From an uncultured Pirellulales bacterium (GTDB taxonomy: Bacteria; Planctomycetota; Phycisphaerae; Sedimentisphaerales; Anaerobacaceae): a DNA stretch of 64,000 nt. The first letter of the stretch is position 1. Each line of letters starts with the position of its first letter. A program made the position numbers and the translations under genes. Below the pieces are notes generated by a model. That model saw only the letters and a program-made list of their open reading frames with translations. It was not told the origin of the DNA and made no database searches. Below are positions 5,091 through 60,900 of the stretch, in pieces. Where the stretch lies: NCBI GenBank assembly GCA_964567045.1, contig CAZMLE010000015.1:225-64224 (forward strand), given 5' to 3'.

Positions 5091-5995
5091 CCACCGCCCA
5101 ACAAGAAATGCTGCCAGAACCGGATAGGCAGGTAGCTCTCCAACTCGGCTACATTGCCGGCGCCGATGTGCCTGCACCGGCAGTGGCACCTTTGAATGGT
5201 GTTATTGCCAGCCTTGCCGTCACTGAGTTCATGGCATGGGCAACGGGCTTTAAGCCCCTACGCCGGTTCATTTTCTACGACTTTGTGAATGCAAGGGTCA
5301 CCCCCTACACATTCAAAATGGACCCGAGCTGCTTTACCTGTAGCGCAACAGGCTCATTGGCTGTTGGCGACAGTGGCTGCTTTCTCGGTTACGTCGACAT
5401 CGATGAAGAACAAAGGACACTGTACATTAGGACACTGGCACCAGTGAAAGTCCCCACAAGCAAGAGGCAAGAGGTAGCCGAGCTTCTGATGAGGGTCAAC
5501 CAACGCTTTCTACTTGGCAATTTCGACTTGAACATGGACAGCGGTGTCATAGCGTATAAGACAAGCGTCATGCTCGGCGACAGCAGCCTTCACGATGACA
5601 TCATTGAACATCTGCTCTATGCAAACTGGCGGGCTGTGGACAGATATTTCCCCTTTTCTGGTCTTATGACGCCCACGGTCATACCAGATGGCAATGGAGG
5701 TTTTGCTGCAGCTTCAGAACGCGAAAGCCTTGTAATATCAAGTGGTTCTATTGGCCAGTCCAATCTGTGGCGAGATTTCGGCGTGATTTGCAGACGGGCA
5801 AGGCTGGAGCGGTGGCCAAAGTGGTGTCATGTCCTGCGGAAGAACTGTGAGACAGACTGGGCCCAGAAGTTTCCGCAGTACGTTGTAAGCGCCTGGAGCG
5901 GGCACGGTATGGAAGTCTCCGCCAGGTACTACTTGCAGGTTCCGGAGCAGCCGTATCACGCAGTTGCTACGCCAGCTATTGAAGCAGATAGGTAA
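5039..5995 (+). pseudogene. Mosaic ORF reading through three unrelated gene remnants: ThiF/E1-like C-terminus, YbjN-like domain, tyrosine integrase C-terminus
   Basis: ThiF/E1-like tail: CLNCISG..APLNGVIASLAVTEFMAW..DPSCFTC. YbjN-like: VPTSKRQEVAELLMRVNQRFLLGNFDLNMDSGVIAYKTSV. Integrase tail: CHVLRKNCETDWAQKFPQYVVSAWSGHGMEVSARYYLQV (HxLR..GH..Y). Confidence 0.5.
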
Positions 5996-9653: not shown

Positions 9654-9692
9654 TATTGCCCACATGATTGGTGCGATTCATCGCACCCTACC
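9654..9692 (-). repeat. REP-type palindromic element, copy A of a 39-bp direct repeat
   Basis: tattgcccacatgattggtgcgattcatcgcaccctacc. Contains hairpin GGTGCGA-ttca-TCGCACC followed by CTAC (reverse of the GTAGGGT head). 36/39 identical to 11407-11445. Confidence 0.6.
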
Positions 9693-17023: not shown

Positions 17024-17045
17024 GGTGGGCTGAAGCCCACCCTAC
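17024..17045 (-). repeat. REP hairpin variant
   Basis: GGTGGGC-tgaa-GCCCACC followed by CTAC. The reverse complement is GTAGGGTGGGC..GCCCACC. Confidence 0.6.
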
Positions 17046-54334: not shown

Positions 54335-56131
54335 CTACACCATTCCCACGTTGTCACCGTGTTGGTTGCCCTTATTTTTATGAACGCATCGCAGAAAGCC
54401 GGTTCCATCCTGGTCTGCTTTTAGCCGGCCCTTTTCTTTTTGAGCATCGTATCGCTGCAGCACATTCAGAGCCCCTGCCAGGCGACTCTCAAAATTGCCC
54501 TTCTGCTGCCCAGCATCCGCTAACTCGGCGATACATTTACCCAGCTCGACCGATTCAGCTTTTGCCAAAACTGCCTTTAGCGGGGCGTCAATATCGGCAC
54601 TTAGCGTCTCAAACAGTATCTCCGCCGTTTGCCTCAATATCGGTACATCGAAGGTCTCTGCTGTAGTTTTCTGCTTTACAGCCTCAAACAGTTTCGGCTC
54701 ATTCAGCAAAACCTCAAGGACCTCGCGTTGAGCTACGGCAAAAAGCCCCTGTCCGTAATCTATGGGCGGCTCTTTGGGTTTATCTTGGTTGTTTATTCGG
54801 GTTTTGGCCAGCCTGCCGATCCTTCTTCGCAGCTCAGCGTTTATCTCTTTACTACCCAGGCCGATAATCCCGGCAAGCCGATTTACCAGCAGCCCCGTGT
54901 CTATGGTAGACAAATTGCCCGCCCATAAGCCGGTAGCTATCGCCTGCAAAAACTCCTCGACCGCCAATTTTCTGCCGACAAGAGTATCATCGCTGCCGAA
55001 ACTGGCCACCAGCCGATTCCACTTAAATTCCAAAACGTCGACCGCTCCAACCACCAACTGCTGGAATGCCTCTTTTCCGGCAGCCAACAGAAAGTCGCAG
55101 GGGTCCTTTCCCTGCGGCACCGAGGCCAGCTTGATATCTATATGCTGCGACAAACAAACCTCCAGCGCCCTGTTGGCCGCTTCGATGCCCGCAGCATCAT
55201 TGTCGAAGACCAGGACTACTTTCTTCGCGTATCGGCGTAAGATTCGCCCGTGCCCATCGGTGAAACTCGTTCCCAGAGCGGCAACGACATTGCCGCATCC
55301 GAACTGGTGTGCCATTATGCAGTCGGTGTAACCTTCAACCACAACCGCCACGCCCGTCGATACGATCTCGTGCCGGGCCTGCTCCAGGCCGTAAAGGCAG
55401 TTGCTCTTGTCAAATAGAGGCGTGGCCGGCGAATTTATGTACTTAGCACCTTCGCCATCCAGTATTCGACCGCCGAAGCCGATCACCCTGCCCGTAACAT
55501 CGGTAATCGTAAACATCAAGCGATTAACAAACTTATCCTGATTTCCAGCCGTGATTAAACCTGCCTGTTCCAGCAGTTTAACCGGGATATTCCTGGCCTT
55601 CGCGGCTCTCAATAAGGCGTCTTGCGAATCAACAGCCAAACCTATCTGCCATTTTCTGGCACTTTCGGCGCTTATCTGCCTTTGAGCGATGTAATCGCGG
55701 GCGTTTTTACCCTTGTTTTGGTCGGCCAGATTCTTCTGGAAGTATTTAGCCGCCCAGGCATTGACTCTAGCCACCTCGTTCGGGTCGATGTCCGTTGACT
55801 GCTGGCTGGTGCCCTTGACAGATTTGGCAGGCTTTAATTTTATGCCCGCGCGGTCGGCTAATCTTTGCACAGCCTGCGGGAAAGTCAGATTTTCCCGCAT
55901 CTGGATAAAAGTAAAGATTCCCCCGCCTGCGCCGCAGGCAAAACACTTGTATATCTGCTTGGCTGGATTGACATTCAGACTCGGGCGATGGTCATCGTGG
56001 AACGGGCACAGTCCGATCATCTCCCTGCCTTTTCTTTTCAGGCTGACGTGCTCGCCGATGACGTCCACGATGTCGTTGGCCTGCTGAACCTGATTAATTA
56101 TTGCCTGGTCGAATGCTCCGGATATTGCCAC
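54335..56131 (-). CDS. dnaG: DNA primase
   Basis: CHC2 zinc finger CPFHDDHRPSLNV..YKCFACGAGG. TOPRIM VVVEGYTDCI..VLVFDNDAAG. Upstream of rpoD, as in the classical operon. Confidence 0.95.
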   Translation of the reverse strand: MAISGAFDQAIINQVQQANDIVDVIGEHVSLKRKGREMIGLCPFHDDHRPSLNVNPAKQIYKCFACGAGGGIFTFIQMRENLTFPQAVQRLADRAGIKLKPAKSVKGTSQQSTDIDPNEVARVNAWAAKYFQKNLADQNKGKNARDYIAQRQISAESARKWQIGLAVDSQDALLRAAKARNIPVKLLEQAGLITAGNQDKFVNRLMFTITDVTGRVIGFGGRILDGEGAKYINSPATPLFDKSNCLYGLEQARHEIVSTGVAVVVEGYTDCIMAHQFGCGNVVAALGTSFTDGHGRILRRYAKKVVLVFDNDAAGIEAANRALEVCLSQHIDIKLASVPQGKDPCDFLLAAGKEAFQQLVVGAVDVLEFKWNRLVASFGSDDTLVGRKLAVEEFLQAIATGLWAGNLSTIDTGLLVNRLAGIIGLGSKEINAELRRRIGRLAKTRINNQDKPKEPPIDYGQGLFAVAQREVLEVLLNEPKLFEAVKQKTTAETFDVPILRQTAEILFETLSADIDAPLKAVLAKAESVELGKCIAELADAGQQKGNFESRLAGALNVLQRYDAQKEKGRLKADQDGTGFLRCVHKNKGNQHGDNVGMV

Positions 56132-56373
56132 TTGTCCTTTGGCCCCCTTTTCGCATCCTGCGTTTGGATTTCTCTCCCACCCCTAATATTTTTACCGTTT
56201 AGTACGGCTTTGAGTTCGTTTTTACCCACCTCGGTCCGCGGGCTGCTAACGAGGTTACTAAATAAATATGGCCCAAGAACCGGAAAAGTCAAGCCGCCGC
56301 AAAAAACCCCGCTTTTAGCACCGCTAAGGCGATTCTCCCCCGTTTGGACACTTGGTCAAATAAGACACATCTC

Positions 56374-56443
56374 GCTGCTCGATGCTCGATACTCGATGCC
56401 AGATACGAGATACGAGTCACGGGTCACGGGCAACGAGCGAGGT
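56374..56443 (+). repeat. Heptanucleotide tandem array, TACGA class, degenerate (about 10 units)
   Basis: GCTGCTC GATGCTC GATACTC GATGCCA GATACGA GATACGA GTCACGG GTCACGG GCAACGA GCGAGGT. Confidence 0.75.
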
Positions 56444-56569
56444 CGAAGGACTTCACGAGATGCGAGCCACGAAATAGATCCTGTAGGGTATGCTCTGCAT
56501 ACCAGTCATGTAGTCCTGTAGGATATGCTGTGCATACCAAAAAACATTTCAATTTCGCACACCAAATTG

Positions 56570-57145
56570 TTATTCTCCGACACTGCTTTGAATATCGCGG
56601 AAATCCGGCGGCTCTATATTTTTTGTGGCGCAATCGCACAGCCAATCGATTTTGTAATATCCTTGCCTTACCCATTGGTGGAAACTCGAATGTGGCCAAA
56701 GATGTGGACACGCCACCAGCTTGTGTTTGACCGGATTATAATGGATGTAGTTGACGTGCTTGATCAAGTCATCTTCGCTTCTTATGGTATGCTCCCAGAA
56801 CCGTCTCTGCCATACGCCTTTCTCGCGAAATTTTTCGCGATAAGCAGGAATGGCACCTTCGCGGCCGCCTGCCATAAGCCAGGACTGAGTAAACCCTTTC
56901 TTTATGCACGACCAGCGGACGGAGAAATCTGCATCGTCCTCGGGTAGTCTCCATACACAACGCAGATGGTCAGGCATAAGTACCATAGCCAGGACATCGA
57001 AAGGCCTGTCCGCTTGCACCTGGCGGATCGATTGACGCAGGAACGAGCGGGCTTGGGAATCCTGAAATATCTTCAGACGGTTATGGGTGACAAGCGTAAA
57101 GAAGAACGTTCCACCCGGCTGATATACGCGACGATAATCCGGCAT
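56570..57145 (-). CDS. REP-associated tyrosine transposase (IS200/IS605-like Y1), copy 1, HUH motif degenerate
   Basis: GGTFFFT..DVLAMVLMPDHLRCVW (H-L-R instead of H-x-H)..RRFWEH..YIHYNPVKH. 191 aa. Confidence 0.85.
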   Translation of the reverse strand: MPDYRRVYQPGGTFFFTLVTHNRLKIFQDSQARSFLRQSIRQVQADRPFDVLAMVLMPDHLRCVWRLPEDDADFSVRWSCIKKGFTQSWLMAGGREGAIPAYREKFREKGVWQRRFWEHTIRSEDDLIKHVNYIHYNPVKHKLVACPHLWPHSSFHQWVRQGYYKIDWLCDCATKNIEPPDFRDIQSSVGE

Positions 57146-57259
57146 AACGTCAGTCCAGTCTCCTGCCGTTCATAAAAATGGTATGCACAGCATACCCTAC
57201 AAGCTTTCTATATTTTATTAGGCGCGTCTTTGTACAATGCCTTGTGCAAACAATAGAAA

Positions 57260-57643
57260 CTATTCATCTCTTTTAATGTCAATACCTCTGACGCATGCGA
57301 GCATATATAGAACTTCTGGGTCAGCACAGACCAGCTTTCTGATTTTTCGAGAAAGTCCTACTTGGTCGGACGCGCTACGCCGAACTTCTACTTCTGTTAT
57401 CTTTCCACTGGCGAGCAAAACGGGCAATGCAGCATAGACATCCACCCCAATAAGGCAAGGTTCGTTGAGAAGCTGTTGTTGTATTTCTCTGACCTCACCT
57501 ACTGTCAGATTGTCATCCATTGCAAAGACAGGGCCCATAGGTGAAGGGCGAATATCAAAATCGTACTTCTCGAGGACTACCTCGCGTATCTTGCGGTGGT
57601 CGTAAACATTAGACCACCTGAAAAGCTTGTTTAAGAAGTTCAT
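57260..57643 (-). CDS. Hypothetical protein (127 aa) between the two RAYT genes
   Basis: ORF only. No recognised motif. Confidence 0.4.
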   Translation of the reverse strand: MNFLNKLFRWSNVYDHRKIREVVLEKYDFDIRPSPMGPVFAMDDNLTVGEVREIQQQLLNEPCLIGVDVYAALPVLLASGKITEVEVRRSASDQVGLSRKIRKLVCADPEVLYMLACVRGIDIKRDE

Positions 57644-57731
57644 GAGTGCATTTCTCTTTCTGTACCTTACCGTGCTGCTCTACACGCCGAGCGTGTAGGT
57701 GCGAGTACAGCTGTTGGTCCTTATTCATAAT

Positions 57732-57773
57732 TCGTATCGCGTATCGCGTGAAGCATATCTCATATTTCGTTCG
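57732..57773 (-). repeat. Heptanucleotide tandem array, TACGA class, reverse orientation (about 6 units)
   Basis: TCGTATC GCGTATC GCGTGAA GCATATC TCATATT TCGTTCG. Confidence 0.65.
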
Positions 57774-57909
57774 GATTCCGCAACCAATTCTGGCCGTTGC
57801 CAGAGCAGCAACGGCTAAACATAGAAAACAAACGATATTATGGTCGGGATTGTCGGAAAAAACAAGAAAAAATCATGTAGGGTATGCTGTGCATACCACT
57901 TGAAAATCT

Positions 57910-58485
57910 TCATTCTCCGACATTATCTGGTATGTCGCTGAAATCCGGTGGTTTCACCCGCTGCTTGTCGCAATCACACAGCCAATCGATTTTGTAATAT
58001 CCTTCTCGTACCCATCGGTGGAAACTGGAATACGGCCATACGTGCGGGCAGGTCGCAAGATTGTGTTTGACCGGATTGTAATGAATGTAATTGACGTGCC
58101 TGATCAGGTCATTGTCATCTCTTATCAGATGCTCCCAGAACCGTCTCTGCCATACACCTTTCTCGCGCAGCTTGTCCCGATATGCTGGAATGGGTCCTTC
58201 TCGAGCGCCTGCTTTTAGCCAGGATTGAGTAAACGCTTTCTTTATGCAGGACCAGCGGACAGAGAACTCAGCATCATCGTCAGGCAGCTTCCAAATACAA
58301 TGCAGATGGTCCGGCAATAGCACCATAGCCAGCACATCAAAAGGCTTTTGTGCCTGTACTGTGCGGATCGACTGGCGCAGCAAATGCCGGGCGTGATGAT
58401 TCTGAAATATCCTCATACGTTCGTGTGTGACAACCGTAAAAAAGAACGTCCCGCCCGGCTGATATACGCGACGATAATTCGGCAT
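57910..58485 (-). CDS. REP-associated tyrosine transposase (IS200/IS605-like Y1), copy 2, motifs intact
   Basis: DVLAMVLLPDHLHCIW (HUH intact)..RRFWEH..YIHYNPVKH. 144/191 positions identical to copy 1 in my gapless manual alignment. Confidence 0.85.
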   Translation of the reverse strand: MPNYRRVYQPGGTFFFTVVTHERMRIFQNHHARHLLRQSIRTVQAQKPFDVLAMVLLPDHLHCIWKLPDDDAEFSVRWSCIKKAFTQSWLKAGAREGPIPAYRDKLREKGVWQRRFWEHLIRDDNDLIRHVNYIHYNPVKHNLATCPHVWPYSSFHRWVREGYYKIDWLCDCDKQRVKPPDFSDIPDNVGE

Positions 58486-58589
58486 AACCGATAATTTATC
58501 CCTATCAACACGTCATCTCACAGAAATGGTATGCAAAGCATACCCTACATCCGGTAAACGCTGGAATCATAAACGCCGAAGGAAATCAT

Positions 58590-59969
58590 TCAATCACGTA
58601 GGGTATGATCCGCATACCGAATCGTTTGGTCTTTCTTAAAAAATTCCTTAGTCAAGCCGAAGACAACCGGGCCTAAAAATAGTAAGGCGATCAAATTGGG
58701 TATGGCCATTAGTCCATTTAATGTGTCGGCAAGGGTCCAAACGGCCTCTAACTTTCCTAACGAGCCGAGCATAATTGGCACAAGCCACAGAATCCTATAA
58801 ACTCCCCTCGCCCTTGCGCCGAAAAGATAAGCCGAGCAGGTCTCGCCATAAAACCCCCACGCAAGTATAGTATCATAAGCAGTCAGCACCATACATAGAA
58901 CAACAATAGAAAAGCCAACCTTCGTGCCAAATACCGTTTCGAAAGCCGACATAGTAAGCAATGAACCGGTAGAGCCAGACTTCCACACGCCCGTAATTAA
59001 GATAGCCAAAGCGGTGGCGGAACAGATGATAATTGTATCGATAAATACCTCAAAGATGCCCCATAGCCCTTGCCGCACCGGATGGTCGGTCTGGGCGGTA
59101 GCATGAGCAATAGAGGCGGAACCCAATCCGGCTTCATTACTAAATACGCCTCTGGCAATACCCCAGCGAATCGCCGCTCTGACGCCGGCGCCTGCAAATC
59201 CGCCGGTCGCAGCAATAGGTGTAAGCGCCGACTTAAAAATTAAAATTAGAGTCTCAGGCAATCTATAAATATTCAGAAATATGATGATAACCGCCGCAAA
59301 AAAATAGATGATACACATGAACGGAACACAAACCATAGCCACATTGGCGATGCGTTTTATTCCGCCAACGGTAACTAAACCAACCGCCAGGATAAGGAGT
59401 ATTCCGGTAATAAGCTTGGGGATGTTAAATTCCGCTAATCCTATGGCCACGGAGTTGGCCTGGGCCATATTCCCTGCGCCAAATGCTGCTAATCCGCCTG
59501 AAACCGCGAACATCACCGCAAGAAACTTAAAGTTTTTGCCCAGCCCGCGTTCGATGTACATCATCGGTCCGCCGAGCATCGGACCTGTTGCCTGGCGTGT
59601 CCGATATGCTATTCCTAAGACCACCTCGGCGAACTTTGTCGCCATCCCGACCAATCCCGACACCCACATCCAGAATATTGCCCCTGGCCCTCCCAAGGCG
59701 ATAGCGGTAGCCACCCCCGCTATATTTCCGACGCCGACCGTGCCGGCCAGCGCCGTACTCAATGCGGCAAATGGACTAATATCTCCTTCCGCACCCTTTC
59801 TTTTTTTCCTGGCAAGGGTCTCTTTGAGCACCGCTGAGAACTTGCGAAATTGAACAAGGCCCGTGCCCAGCGTCAGATAGACCCCTATACCCACGATAGC
59901 AATGATCATCGGCGGGCCCCAGATAAAGTTGTCATTCAACCACAAATTGATTTCAAATATCCGGTTCAA
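58590..59969 (-). CDS. Alanine/glycine:cation symporter (AGCS family)
   Basis: NDNFIWGPPMIIAIVGIGVYLT..ISPFAALSTALAGTVGVGNIAGVATAI..SNEAGLGSA motifs. Start set to TTG 59969 (GTGAGGT SD 7 nt upstream). The last codons run into a REP. Confidence 0.8.
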   Translation of the reverse strand: MNRIFEINLWLNDNFIWGPPMIIAIVGIGVYLTLGTGLVQFRKFSAVLKETLARKKRKGAEGDISPFAALSTALAGTVGVGNIAGVATAIALGGPGAIFWMWVSGLVGMATKFAEVVLGIAYRTRQATGPMLGGPMMYIERGLGKNFKFLAVMFAVSGGLAAFGAGNMAQANSVAIGLAEFNIPKLITGILLILAVGLVTVGGIKRIANVAMVCVPFMCIIYFFAAVIIIFLNIYRLPETLILIFKSALTPIAATGGFAGAGVRAAIRWGIARGVFSNEAGLGSASIAHATAQTDHPVRQGLWGIFEVFIDTIIICSATALAILITGVWKSGSTGSLLTMSAFETVFGTKVGFSIVVLCMVLTAYDTILAWGFYGETCSAYLFGARARGVYRILWLVPIMLGSLGKLEAVWTLADTLNGLMAIPNLIALLFLGPVVFGLTKEFFKKDQTIRYADHTLRD

Positions 59970-60114
59970 TGCACTTACCTCACTTTCCCATTGATTGGCC
60001 TGTTGAGAAACCTTAAACGCAACACCTAAGGGACACAAGGCAGGTAGTATATAGCATGTGCGCATGGCATGACAAAATATTTTTGCCCAGAAGAAATGGT
60101 GTGCAAGGCACACT

Positions 60115-60900
60115 CTACTTTAAGCCGAAAAACGCTCTGCTGGTGGCGGTTAGCGCCTGGGCTAAATCTTCTAAGTCCATCTGCTTTAGCTCGGCTAAGA
60201 AACGGGCGGTGTGAATCATAAGGGCAGGCTCGTTCACCTTCTGCCTTCGCATCGGCTCCGGCGACATATAGGGCGAGTCCGTCTCCAGCATCAATCTATC
60301 CACCGGCACAATCCTGGCGGCCTCCTGCTTTATATGGGCGTTCTTGAATGTCACCACGCCGGTAAAAGATATATAAAAGCCTTTGTCCAGAACGACCTTT
60401 GCCTGCTCAGCCGAGCCGCTAAAACAATGAAAAACGACTTTCTCAACAGTGCTTCGATGCTCGTTCAGGATTTGCATAGTCTCATCGAAGGCCTCTCTGC
60501 AATGGATAATAACCGGCAGCCCTAATTCGCCGGCAATTTTCAGGTGCTCGGCAAAACCCTCTTTTTGCTGCTGCCGCGGTGAGAAATCGTAATGATAGTC
60601 CAGCCCTGTTTCGCCGATGGCCACAACCTTTTTGTGCTGGGCTATCTTTTTCAGTTCGGCGAGCATCTGAGCGGTTACGGTTTTGGCATCGTGCGGATGG
60701 ATGCCGACAGCGGCGTACATATTCTCAAACCGCTCCGCAAATTCTATGGCCTTTCGGTTTTCCTGCGGGTCGGTGCCTATGGTTATCCACTCGGTGACAC
60801 CCGCAGCAATGCTGCGGGCTAAAACGCCGTCAATATCCTGCGCCAAATCCTCAAACGTCAAATGACAATGCGTATCAATCAACTTCACCGCCGACCTCAC
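60115..60900 (-). CDS. TatD-family metal-dependent hydrolase
   Basis: IDTHCHL, GETGLDY, IHCR and ETDSPY motifs. Confidence 0.9.
   Translation of the reverse strand: MRSAVKLIDTHCHLTFEDLAQDIDGVLARSIAAGVTEWITIGTDPQENRKAIEFAERFENMYAAVGIHPHDAKTVTAQMLAELKKIAQHKKVVAIGETGLDYHYDFSPRQQQKEGFAEHLKIAGELGLPVIIHCREAFDETMQILNEHRSTVEKVVFHCFSGSAEQAKVVLDKGFYISFTGVVTFKNAHIKQEAARIVPVDRLMLETDSPYMSPEPMRRQKVNEPALMIHTARFLAELKQMDLEDLAQALTATSRAFFGLK

Follow-up and report, generated by a model that had tools for sequence, protein, structure and literature searches.

In this study, we analyzed a 64,000-nucleotide (nt) stretch of contig CAZMLE010000015.1 from an uncultured Pirellulales bacterium (hereafter the window), in which a locus between a Na+/alanine symporter gene and dnaG-rpoD carries two full-length genes for REP-associated tyrosine transposases (RAYTs) together with the repetitive extragenic palindromic (REP) hairpins that characterize such genes. 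Judging by the names of the nearest named homologues, the genome is probably that of a Sedimentisphaerales-like planctomycete. The two RAYT genes, designated copy 1 (next to dnaG) and copy 2 (next to the symporter gene), are arranged head-to-tail with a repeat period of 1340 nt (~1.34 kb), and an open reading frame (ORF) of 127 codons lies between them (Table 1). The encoded proteins can be aligned without gaps and are identical at 144 of 191 positions, and the genes differ at about 21% of their nucleotides. Both proteins contain the motif NYIHYNPVKH, whereas the metal-binding motif reads PDHLHCIW in copy 2 and PDHLRCVW in copy 1. The latter difference is the main subject here, as copy 1 appears to have been inactivated recently at a locus where copy 2 remains intact.

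Several of these features had been proposed in an original prediction made from the DNA letters alone. Its two 191-residue paralogues were recovered, BLASTP gave the identical count of matching positions with zero gaps, and its motif readings for the two copies were confirmed from the ORF translations. Its account of what separates the copies holds in part: the 127-aa ORF is present but is not an orphan, since it has nine homologues (60-82% identity), and the heptamer array between the copies exists but amounts to merely 2.4 units, a long array being found elsewhere, at 56371-56430.

Table 1. Genes, REP hairpins and other features of the two-RAYT locus (positions in the window unless another contig is named)
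Feature	Position	Strand	Remarks
tatD	60115-60900	minus	
Na+/alanine symporter gene	about 58590-59940	minus	
Outermost REP	58598-58618	+	one mismatch; 6-bp stem, 5-nt loop, -4.4 kcal/mol
REP immediately upstream of copy 2	58528-58548	minus	followed by copy-2-type leader; terminator-like
RAYT copy 2, 191 aa	57910-58485	minus	NF047646 match
REP downstream of copy 2	57877-57897	+	pattern match; folds as single-stranded DNA
Non-coding segment downstream of copy 2's REP	57767-57876	minus	hairpin GCCGTTGC...GCAACGGC
127-aa ORF between the RAYT copies	57260-57643	minus	
REP immediately upstream of copy 1	57180-57200	minus	followed by T-rich 'long' leader; terminator-like
RAYT copy 1, 191 aa	56570-57145	minus	NF047646 match
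Copy 1 codons 60-62 (H-L-R)	56960-56968	minus	codon 62 CGT at 56960-56962
Proximal REP downstream of copy 1	56518-56538	+	one mismatch (GTAGGA...), interrupted stem, -3.1 kcal/mol
Distal of the two tandem REPs downstream of copy 1	56483-56503	+	exact pattern; -5.9 kcal/mol
dnaG	54335-56131	minus	
79-aa RAYT derivatives	L128:2967-3206, L129:2365-2604, L130:2901-3140		

The family membership of both proteins is clear. The NCBIfam model for REP-associated tyrosine transposases (NF047646, cutoff 80) scored copy 1 at 181.9 bits and copy 2 at 186.8 bits, whereas the IS200 model (NF033573, cutoff 55) gave only 15.9 and 14.6 bits, respectively. The sole sequence match in the PDB was TnpA_REP of Escherichia coli (4ER8, E=1e-38), and the search against Pfam Y1_Tnp that had been suggested with the original prediction returned weak but significant matches. 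These results agree with the earlier assignment of the proteins to the RAYTs instead of to IS200-type TnpA. In TnpA_REP, the metal ion is coordinated by H59, H61, N119, H123 and E161, and Y115 serves as the nucleophile (PMC3479197). The alignment places H60 of the window proteins on H59, residue 62 on H61, Y133 on Y115, N137 on N119 and H141 on H123. Both copies have Y133, N137 and H141, which show little or no variation within the family. Copy 2 keeps all five residues, including the four alignable metal ligands, and has an intact histidine-hydrophobic-histidine (HUH) motif (H60-L-H62). In copy 1 the same motif reads H60-L-R62, and this protein may be regarded as a RAYT by descent that has lost one of the residues defining the catalytic center.

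The REP hairpins of the locus were collected with the pattern GTAGGGTATGCNNNGCATACC (18 specified bases, up to two mismatches), which corresponds to the stem-loop-stem form GTAGGGTATGC-NNN-GCATACC. Six matches were obtained in the 64-kb window, all of them within 56483-58618, and none in 100 shuffled sequences. Folding as single-stranded DNA (ssDNA) gave a 7-bp stem closed by a 3-nt loop (-5.9 kcal/mol) for four of these REPs, and weaker hairpins for the two with one mismatch (Table 1). In gene orientation, a GTAG-footed hairpin REP immediately precedes each RAYT gene, and one or two REPs in reverse complement follow it closely. Inverted REP pairs with a 5' GTAG foot therefore bracket each of the two genes, which is the arrangement of a REPtron and the one that had been predicted. 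The two REPs closest to the symporter gene (58598-58618 on the plus strand and 58528-58548 on the minus strand) form an additional inverted pair, 49 nt apart, that resembles a REP doublet forming hairpin (REPIN). Moreover, the REPs upstream of both start codons are followed by a T-rich tract and score as terminator-like sites; they may insulate the RAYT genes from read-through, an idea that has been raised before (PMC3733652). The outermost REP overlaps the 3' end of the symporter ORF (58590-58622) and supplies its last 11 codons and stop region (...KDQTIRYADHTLRD followed by the stop codon). The orthologous symporter of a related contig, L001, ends in ...KDQNR before its stop codon, and the REP insertion has rewritten the C-terminus of the window symporter.

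Further examination of the HUH motif revealed that, among the relatives aligned, the loss of the second His is confined to copy 1. Codon 62 is CAT in copy 2 (58300-58302) and in the RAYT genes of the related contigs L001, L131, L002 and L003, and CGT in copy 1, a difference of one transition. Position 62 is His in 125 of the 126 aligned relatives, copy 1 being the sole exception, and HLH is also found in the other full-length proteins of its 90%-identity cluster, six in number. Apart from this position, copy 1 has a complete ORF and agrees with the family at every invariant column. The previously noted loss of the second metal-binding His is thus borne out: R62 aligns with H61 of TnpA_REP and is the only non-His residue there. 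The contig was assembled from a metagenome, and assemblers may go wrong at repeats of 79-83% identity; an error of sequencing, or a collapsed or chimeric assembly, might thus have produced the tandem or H62R. However, an independent Logan contig, L133 (run ERR4334735), is 100% identical to window positions 56129-58725 over 2597 nt and is recorded in four samples; it runs from the end of the symporter gene through both RAYT copies and the 127-aa gene to the region upstream of dnaG, so an assembly or base-calling artefact is unlikely. In addition, the nucleotide difference between the copies is far too great for collapse or misjoining, and we consider this explanation very improbable. Losses of catalytic residues were also observed among other relatives: P0023 has Y-F-H in place of the HUH motif, and in P0087 three residues are missing, the catalytic Tyr among them, which suggests a background of about 2% putatively inactivated RAYT genes in this family.

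Comparison with related contigs indicates which of the two copies is the resident gene. A single RAYT gene lies directly upstream of dnaG(-rpoD) in L001, L131, L002 and L003/L004, and L001 also has tatD and the symporter gene in common with the window; one RAYT gene each was found in L001-L004, L131 and L134. Copy 1 is 97.4%, 91.3% and 87.2% identical at the nucleotide level to the RAYT genes of L001, L002 and L003, respectively, compared with 77-79% for copy 2. In a neighbor-joining tree (200 bootstraps), copy 1 groups with the L001 group (99.5%), then with L002 (93.5%) and then with L003 (100%), and copy 2 is sister to this whole clade (91.5%). On the basis of the synteny by dnaG and the clade placement, copy 1 is the vertically inherited resident orthologue. 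The copy-1 orthologues thus occupy a conserved chromosomal site, shared by lineages with a synonymous divergence (dS) of up to 0.59. Beyond the close clade this linkage ends, as a 61%-identical RAYT gene (P0030) lies instead between rsfS and argS. The nearest relatives of copy 2 are 74-75% identical at the amino acid level, and no orthologue or closer relative was found among 5.8 billion proteins. It is an older paralogue, unless it was acquired as a xenologue from a sister lineage not yet sampled.

The original prediction had also called the tandem arrangement unusual, and the related loci agree. None of 80 related metagenome loci (46-74% identity; 36 spanning 3 kb or more) contained a second RAYT-like sequence (tblastn, E<=1e-5), as was the case for the six contigs with one gene each. 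In general, one full-length tnpA_REP is present per REP type (PMC6006769). On the other hand, Di Nocera et al. (2013) described species with a single REP family and several REPtrons that differ in transposase sequence and REP arrangement, and also REPtrons in species that lack a dispersed REP family (PMC3733652). Given such several-REPtron species, two head-to-tail genes with a common REP type are uncommon yet within known biology.

We also scanned species-representative genomes for exact copies of the REP; the resulting counts are lower bounds. The REP was present in at least 118 stretches from at least 48 genome accessions, and the hosts among the matches listed belong to Methylococcaceae, Pirellulales, other Planctomycetota and a metagenome-assembled genome (MAG) of Sedimentisphaerales, which alone has at least 13 exact copies at nine or more loci. 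Only two of the 118 stretches listed hold a RAYT gene, the other 116 being devoid of one, so the REP is a true dispersed element in other genomes. These data also bear on the possibility that the window contains two copies of an ordinary IS200/IS605-type insertion sequence and no domesticated RAYT. Such a reading could appeal to the weak Pfam Y1_Tnp matches and to the subterminal-like hairpins that flank the genes, but it is contradicted by the model scores given above, the upstream-of-dnaG position kept over the dS range just mentioned, the lack of a tnpB-like ORF in 56000-58800, the single gene at all 80 related loci and the REPs without a RAYT among the matches listed. Its probability is close to negligible.

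Exact copies of the REP (among L006-L123) also occur in the gammaproteobacterial methanotrophs Methylobacter, Methyloprofundus and Methylovulum. In Methyloprofundus (L059:5837-6340), five of them surround a RAYT gene whose product is 48% identical to those of the window; different phyla have kept one REP sequence, although their RAYT enzymes have diverged.

The leaders of the RAYT genes provide a clue to the history of the tandem. Copy 1 is preceded by a 'long' leader (...ATGAACGGCAGGAGACTGGACTGACGTT-ATG), and the same form, or one shorter by 15 nt, precedes the RAYT genes of L002, L003, L128 and L129. The leader of copy 2 (...GTGAGATGACGTGTTGATAGGGATAAATTATCGGTT-ATG) was seen elsewhere only in L001/L131, where 65 of 66 positions are identical. 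The L001/L131 gene itself agrees with copy 2 at informative sites 7, 33 and 36 and, from nt 45 on, with copy 1 at 112 of 118 informative sites, the switch point abutting 25 nt over which the two copies do not differ. This gene is an HUH-intact chimera composed of the copy-2 leader with the first ~36 nt of copy 2 and the body of copy 1. According to the scenario that we prefer, the ancestor of the window strain and L001/L131 would already have possessed the tandem, and recombination between the two 5' ends would have deleted the copy-2 body, a REP, the 127-aa gene, another REP and the copy-1 leader in L001/L131, leaving the single chimeric gene. Because a copy-2 leader is joined there to a copy-1 body, the tandem would predate the split of the two lineages. 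It appears that the tandem state is unstable and that the sister strain has resolved it by recombination.

Remnants of additional copies were observed at the same site in other relatives. In L003, a REP, the long leader and a 25-nt RAYT 5' stump lie between the RAYT gene and dnaG (L003:6726-6805; 92.5% identical to window 57200-57121), and a second, degenerate 5' stump is located upstream of the intact gene (L003:5920-5960). Such stumps (REP, leader and the first 20-25 nt of the coding sequence) flank the single intact RAYT gene in L003/L004/L005. Since L003 keeps these extra 5' ends, multi-copy states at the locus are old and recurrent.

Alternatively, an L001-like single gene could be ancestral, and the window strain could have acquired the 1.34-kb unit recently through one crossover within the conserved 5' end of the gene; such a unit would comprise a RAYT body of foreign origin, the 127-aa gene with a REP on either side, and a leader. 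The 1340-nt repeat period with its junction in the same interval of nt 36-45, the failure to find a copy 2 orthologue in the protein search and the occurrence of the 127-aa gene in unrelated contexts elsewhere are all compatible with this model, and the three differences private to copy 1 in its first 36 nt (sites 7, 33 and 36) could be of foreign origin. However, the leader type of copy 1 is native to copy-1-type bodies in L128/L129, L002 and L003, and the leader of L001 matches copy 2 alone, so that an L001-like ancestor would need an earlier encounter with a copy-2-type gene, i.e., an extra event. The 5' stumps of L003, pointing to old multi-copy states, are a further argument against it. 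We therefore regard a recent insertion as a doubtful alternative, although one worth keeping in mind. Gene conversion between the copies was considered as well and set aside: the longest identical runs (25-28 nt) are at conserved motifs, and only three of about ten private changes match copy 2, which is within chance.

A more drastic derivative of the copy-1-type RAYT was observed in six contigs (Table 1; P0122 and P0123), in which an in-frame deletion of residues 15-126 leaves 79 aa without an HUH motif; REPs still follow the gene. The upstream neighbors of this derivative in L128 are unlike those in L129/L130.

The substitution pattern was then considered together with the HUH defect. The ratio of nonsynonymous to synonymous rates (dN/dS) between copy 1 and copy 2 is 0.16, and purifying selection has acted on both copies over most of their past. 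For copy 1 versus L001 the ratio is 0.29 (7 synonymous and 8 nonsynonymous changes). After polarization with outgroups, about 3-4 nonsynonymous (N3D, H62R, I64V and possibly V99I) and 5-6 synonymous changes fall on the private copy-1 branch, and these counts are too small to demonstrate either relaxation or continued constraint. The dS to the nearest HLH allele is 0.06, which makes the break of the HUH motif a recent one.

The explanation that we favor, and consider reasonably probable, is that the redundancy of the tandem permitted a recent inactivation of copy 1, the locus thus providing a snapshot of duplication and decay. E. coli TnpA_REP is a monomer that binds the REP hairpin with its 5' GTAG on ssDNA, cleaves in the presence of Mn2+ through a 5'-phosphotyrosine and can rejoin the ends (PMC3479197). 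By homology, a cognate RAYT of the window would bind its REP hairpin and 5' GTAG on ssDNA and would cut and rejoin it through the same type of intermediate, with the metal coordinated by both HUH histidines, by one Asn and one His of the helix that carries the tyrosine, and by a Glu in the C-terminal part. For copy 2, such activity is predicted. In copy 1, a cationic Arg replaces one of the three imidazole ligands, which is predicted to abolish metal binding and hence cutting, while the fold and probably REP binding would be kept. Copy 1 is accordingly described as most likely unable to cleave because H62R hits a metal ligand, and its inactivation as recent and tolerated through the redundant copy 2 because the rest of the protein is intact and shows no excess of amino acid changes. 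The family assignment, the REP arrangement, the substitution and its reality, the orthology and paralogy of the copies and the chimeric gene of L001/L131 are shown directly by the data; the loss of activity, redundancy as its cause and the order of events are what we infer from these comparisons. A 'half-dead heterodimer' of the two copies is not expected, since TnpA_REP is a monomer and the TnpA proteins of IS200/IS605 elements are obligate dimers with trans active sites (PMC3479197); a heterodimer with a trans active site as in IS608 was set aside for this reason.

Four points weigh against this explanation. First, some HUH enzymes tolerate a residue other than His at the second position (such as HUQ in the circovirus Rep), so that a complete loss of activity in copy 1 is not certain. 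Second, the intact copy-1 ORF and a branch without relaxed constraint fit retention in a non-catalytic role equally well. Third, the order of events follows from parsimony of the leader types, and both a tandem and an L001-like ancestor are conceivable. Fourth, at up to two mismatches to the pattern, the 64-kb window contains no canonical REP outside 56483-58618.

The original prediction had left the choice between decay and subfunctionalization open. According to the latter, the HUH-defective copy 1 was selected as a non-cutting REP binder, acting either as a competitor or regulator of copy 2 or as a protector of the hairpin. Retention of the complete ORF with Y133, N137, H141 and the other invariant columns would be expected in this case, as would the absence of a nonsynonymous excess on the private branch, and the R62 allele is the one assembled in four samples. 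Moreover, E. coli TnpA_REP is auto-inhibited and severely down-regulated (PMC3479197), so a further brake would not be absurd. Nevertheless, H62R is private to one population, every close relative, the six cluster members included, has HLH, and hence a conserved 'dead' lineage is not apparent; a dS of 0.06 is too short an interval for selection to be visible. In addition, the same REP type flanks both copies, arguing against divergence of their targets, and sporadic motif losses in about 2% of relatives (P0023 and P0087) are what simple decay predicts. Of the two possibilities, recent decay is thus favored by the private substitution and the low dS, and subfunctionalization is rather unlikely. 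Its most specific form, in which copy 1 is a retained dead REP-binding paralogue that gates copy 2 and so provides a built-in brake on REP mobilization, strikes us as slightly less plausible still. A lesser version of these ideas is that recombination takes REPtrons back and forth between the tandem and the single state, which could yield chimeric RAYTs such as that of L001/L131.

Among domesticated bacterial transposases, RAYTs with their REPs are the best-known example, and the present locus is a known type of system with an uncommon gene arrangement, without a new mechanism. The closest parallel is the REPtron of E. coli K-12 (tnpA_REP, also called rayT or yafM; REP and bacterial interspersed mosaic elements; 4ER8), which belongs to the same sequence family with an alignable HUH motif and Y115/N119/H123, is flanked by inverted REPs that consist of a short hairpin and a GTAG foot on its 5' side, is not self-mobile and keeps a conserved chromosomal position. 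It differs in having one full-length RAYT where the window has two, one of them with H-L-R. Furthermore, TnpA_REP comprises 165 aa, compared with 191 aa and a longer C-terminus in the window, and the stem of the window REP is perfect (7 bp, 3-nt loop) and lacks the bulge.

The REPIN-RAYT systems of Pseudomonas and Enterobacteria (Bertels and Rainey; Group 2/3 RAYTs) are likewise comparable: copy 1 is a vertically inherited gene at a single locus, inverted REP pairs such as the one upstream of copy 2 are present, and the REP is dispersed away from the RAYT in other genomes. In contrast, two adjacent RAYTs here correspond to one REP type, instead of the usual one (PMC6006769), and the classical hosts have hundreds of REPs whereas the related MAGs have few, at least 13 in the Sedimentisphaerales MAG. 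Multiple REPtrons with one GTAG REP family (PMC3733652) share with the window the presence of several RAYTs per REP family, but those were described as separate loci, and here the genes are head-to-tail, 1.34 kb apart, and one is without a metal ligand. Finally, IS200/IS605 TnpA proteins (IS608, ISDra2) have the same HUH/Y1 chemistry and recognize ssDNA hairpins (PMC3479197); unlike them, the window RAYTs fail the IS200 model, are not accompanied by tnpB and have a conserved chromosomal position.

What the comparative data add is that the defective copy is the resident orthologue, that its defect is private and recent, and that the tandem seems unstable and to have been resolved by recombination in relatives. 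Together, the tandem with a lost ligand, the recombinant single gene, the 5' stumps and the 79-aa in-frame deletion form a natural series at one syntenic site, showing the origin, decay and collapse of RAYT copies in a little-studied phylum. The locus also offers a natural active-site mutant beside its wild-type paralogue with a common REP substrate, and is thus suited to biochemical comparison.

In addition to the canonical REPs, other GTAG-footed hairpins were detected on the minus strand of the window at 9670-9691 (GTAGGGTGCGA..TCGCACC), 17024-17045 (GTAGGGTGGGC..GCCCACC) and 60098-60118 (GTAGAGTGTGC..GCACAC), giving eight GTAG hairpins in all versus 1.3 expected. They seem to lie between genes and have stems unlike that of the REP; they could represent divergent relatives of the REP in which stem changes have been compensatory.

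The protein encoded by the 127-aa ORF had no match in Pfam, NCBIfam, PHROGs or PADLOC. Its AlphaFold2 model, built from a 10-sequence alignment, reached a predicted local distance difference test (pLDDT) score of 71, and Foldseek against the PDB gave a best E value of 6, with no fold match. In the contexts of its homologues in L124 and L126, neither a RAYT gene nor REPs were found nearby. The 127-aa gene is a conserved hypothetical gene that is not RAYT/REP-linked in other genomes. Other small genes were also observed within the REP cluster: a 94-aa ORF (MDKKEAKDILAKELE...) lies between inverted REPs upstream of the L003 RAYT gene (L003:5543-5889), and the same ORF is curtailed by a REP in L002 (L002:5735-5923). 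The cluster seems to capture small genes and to disrupt them.

The non-coding segment downstream of copy 2 has a counterpart in L003, where 5415-5536 aligns to window 57897-57767 with 72.5% identity. This REP-adjacent stretch of about 110-130 nt (L003:5436-5536 without the REP) is located downstream of an AP2-domain gene in L003 and downstream of copy 2 in the window, and the stem of its GCCGTTGC...GCAACGGC hairpin appears compensatorily changed in L003. The stretch had no match in Rfam, and a scan of 55900-58900 (E<=1) likewise returned no RNA family. Promoter-like sites were not enriched at the locus (5 vs 3.4 expected). Just beyond the hairpin are the 2.4 units of CGTATCG mentioned above (57733-57749; Tandem Repeats Finder (TRF) score 34).

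The long array (window 56371-56430) consists of about nine tandem heptamers detected by TRF (CTCGATG / AGATACG / ACGGGTC on the plus strand; ATCGAGC-like in gene orientation). It is located between the REPs of copy 1 and dnaG, outside the RAYT pair, just upstream of a promoter-like TTGACC...GAGAAT site that precedes dnaG. Its counterpart in L001 (L001:6826-6885) has about eight units as counted by eye, versus one to three in L002/L003, and so the array next to dnaG has lengthened in this sub-lineage.

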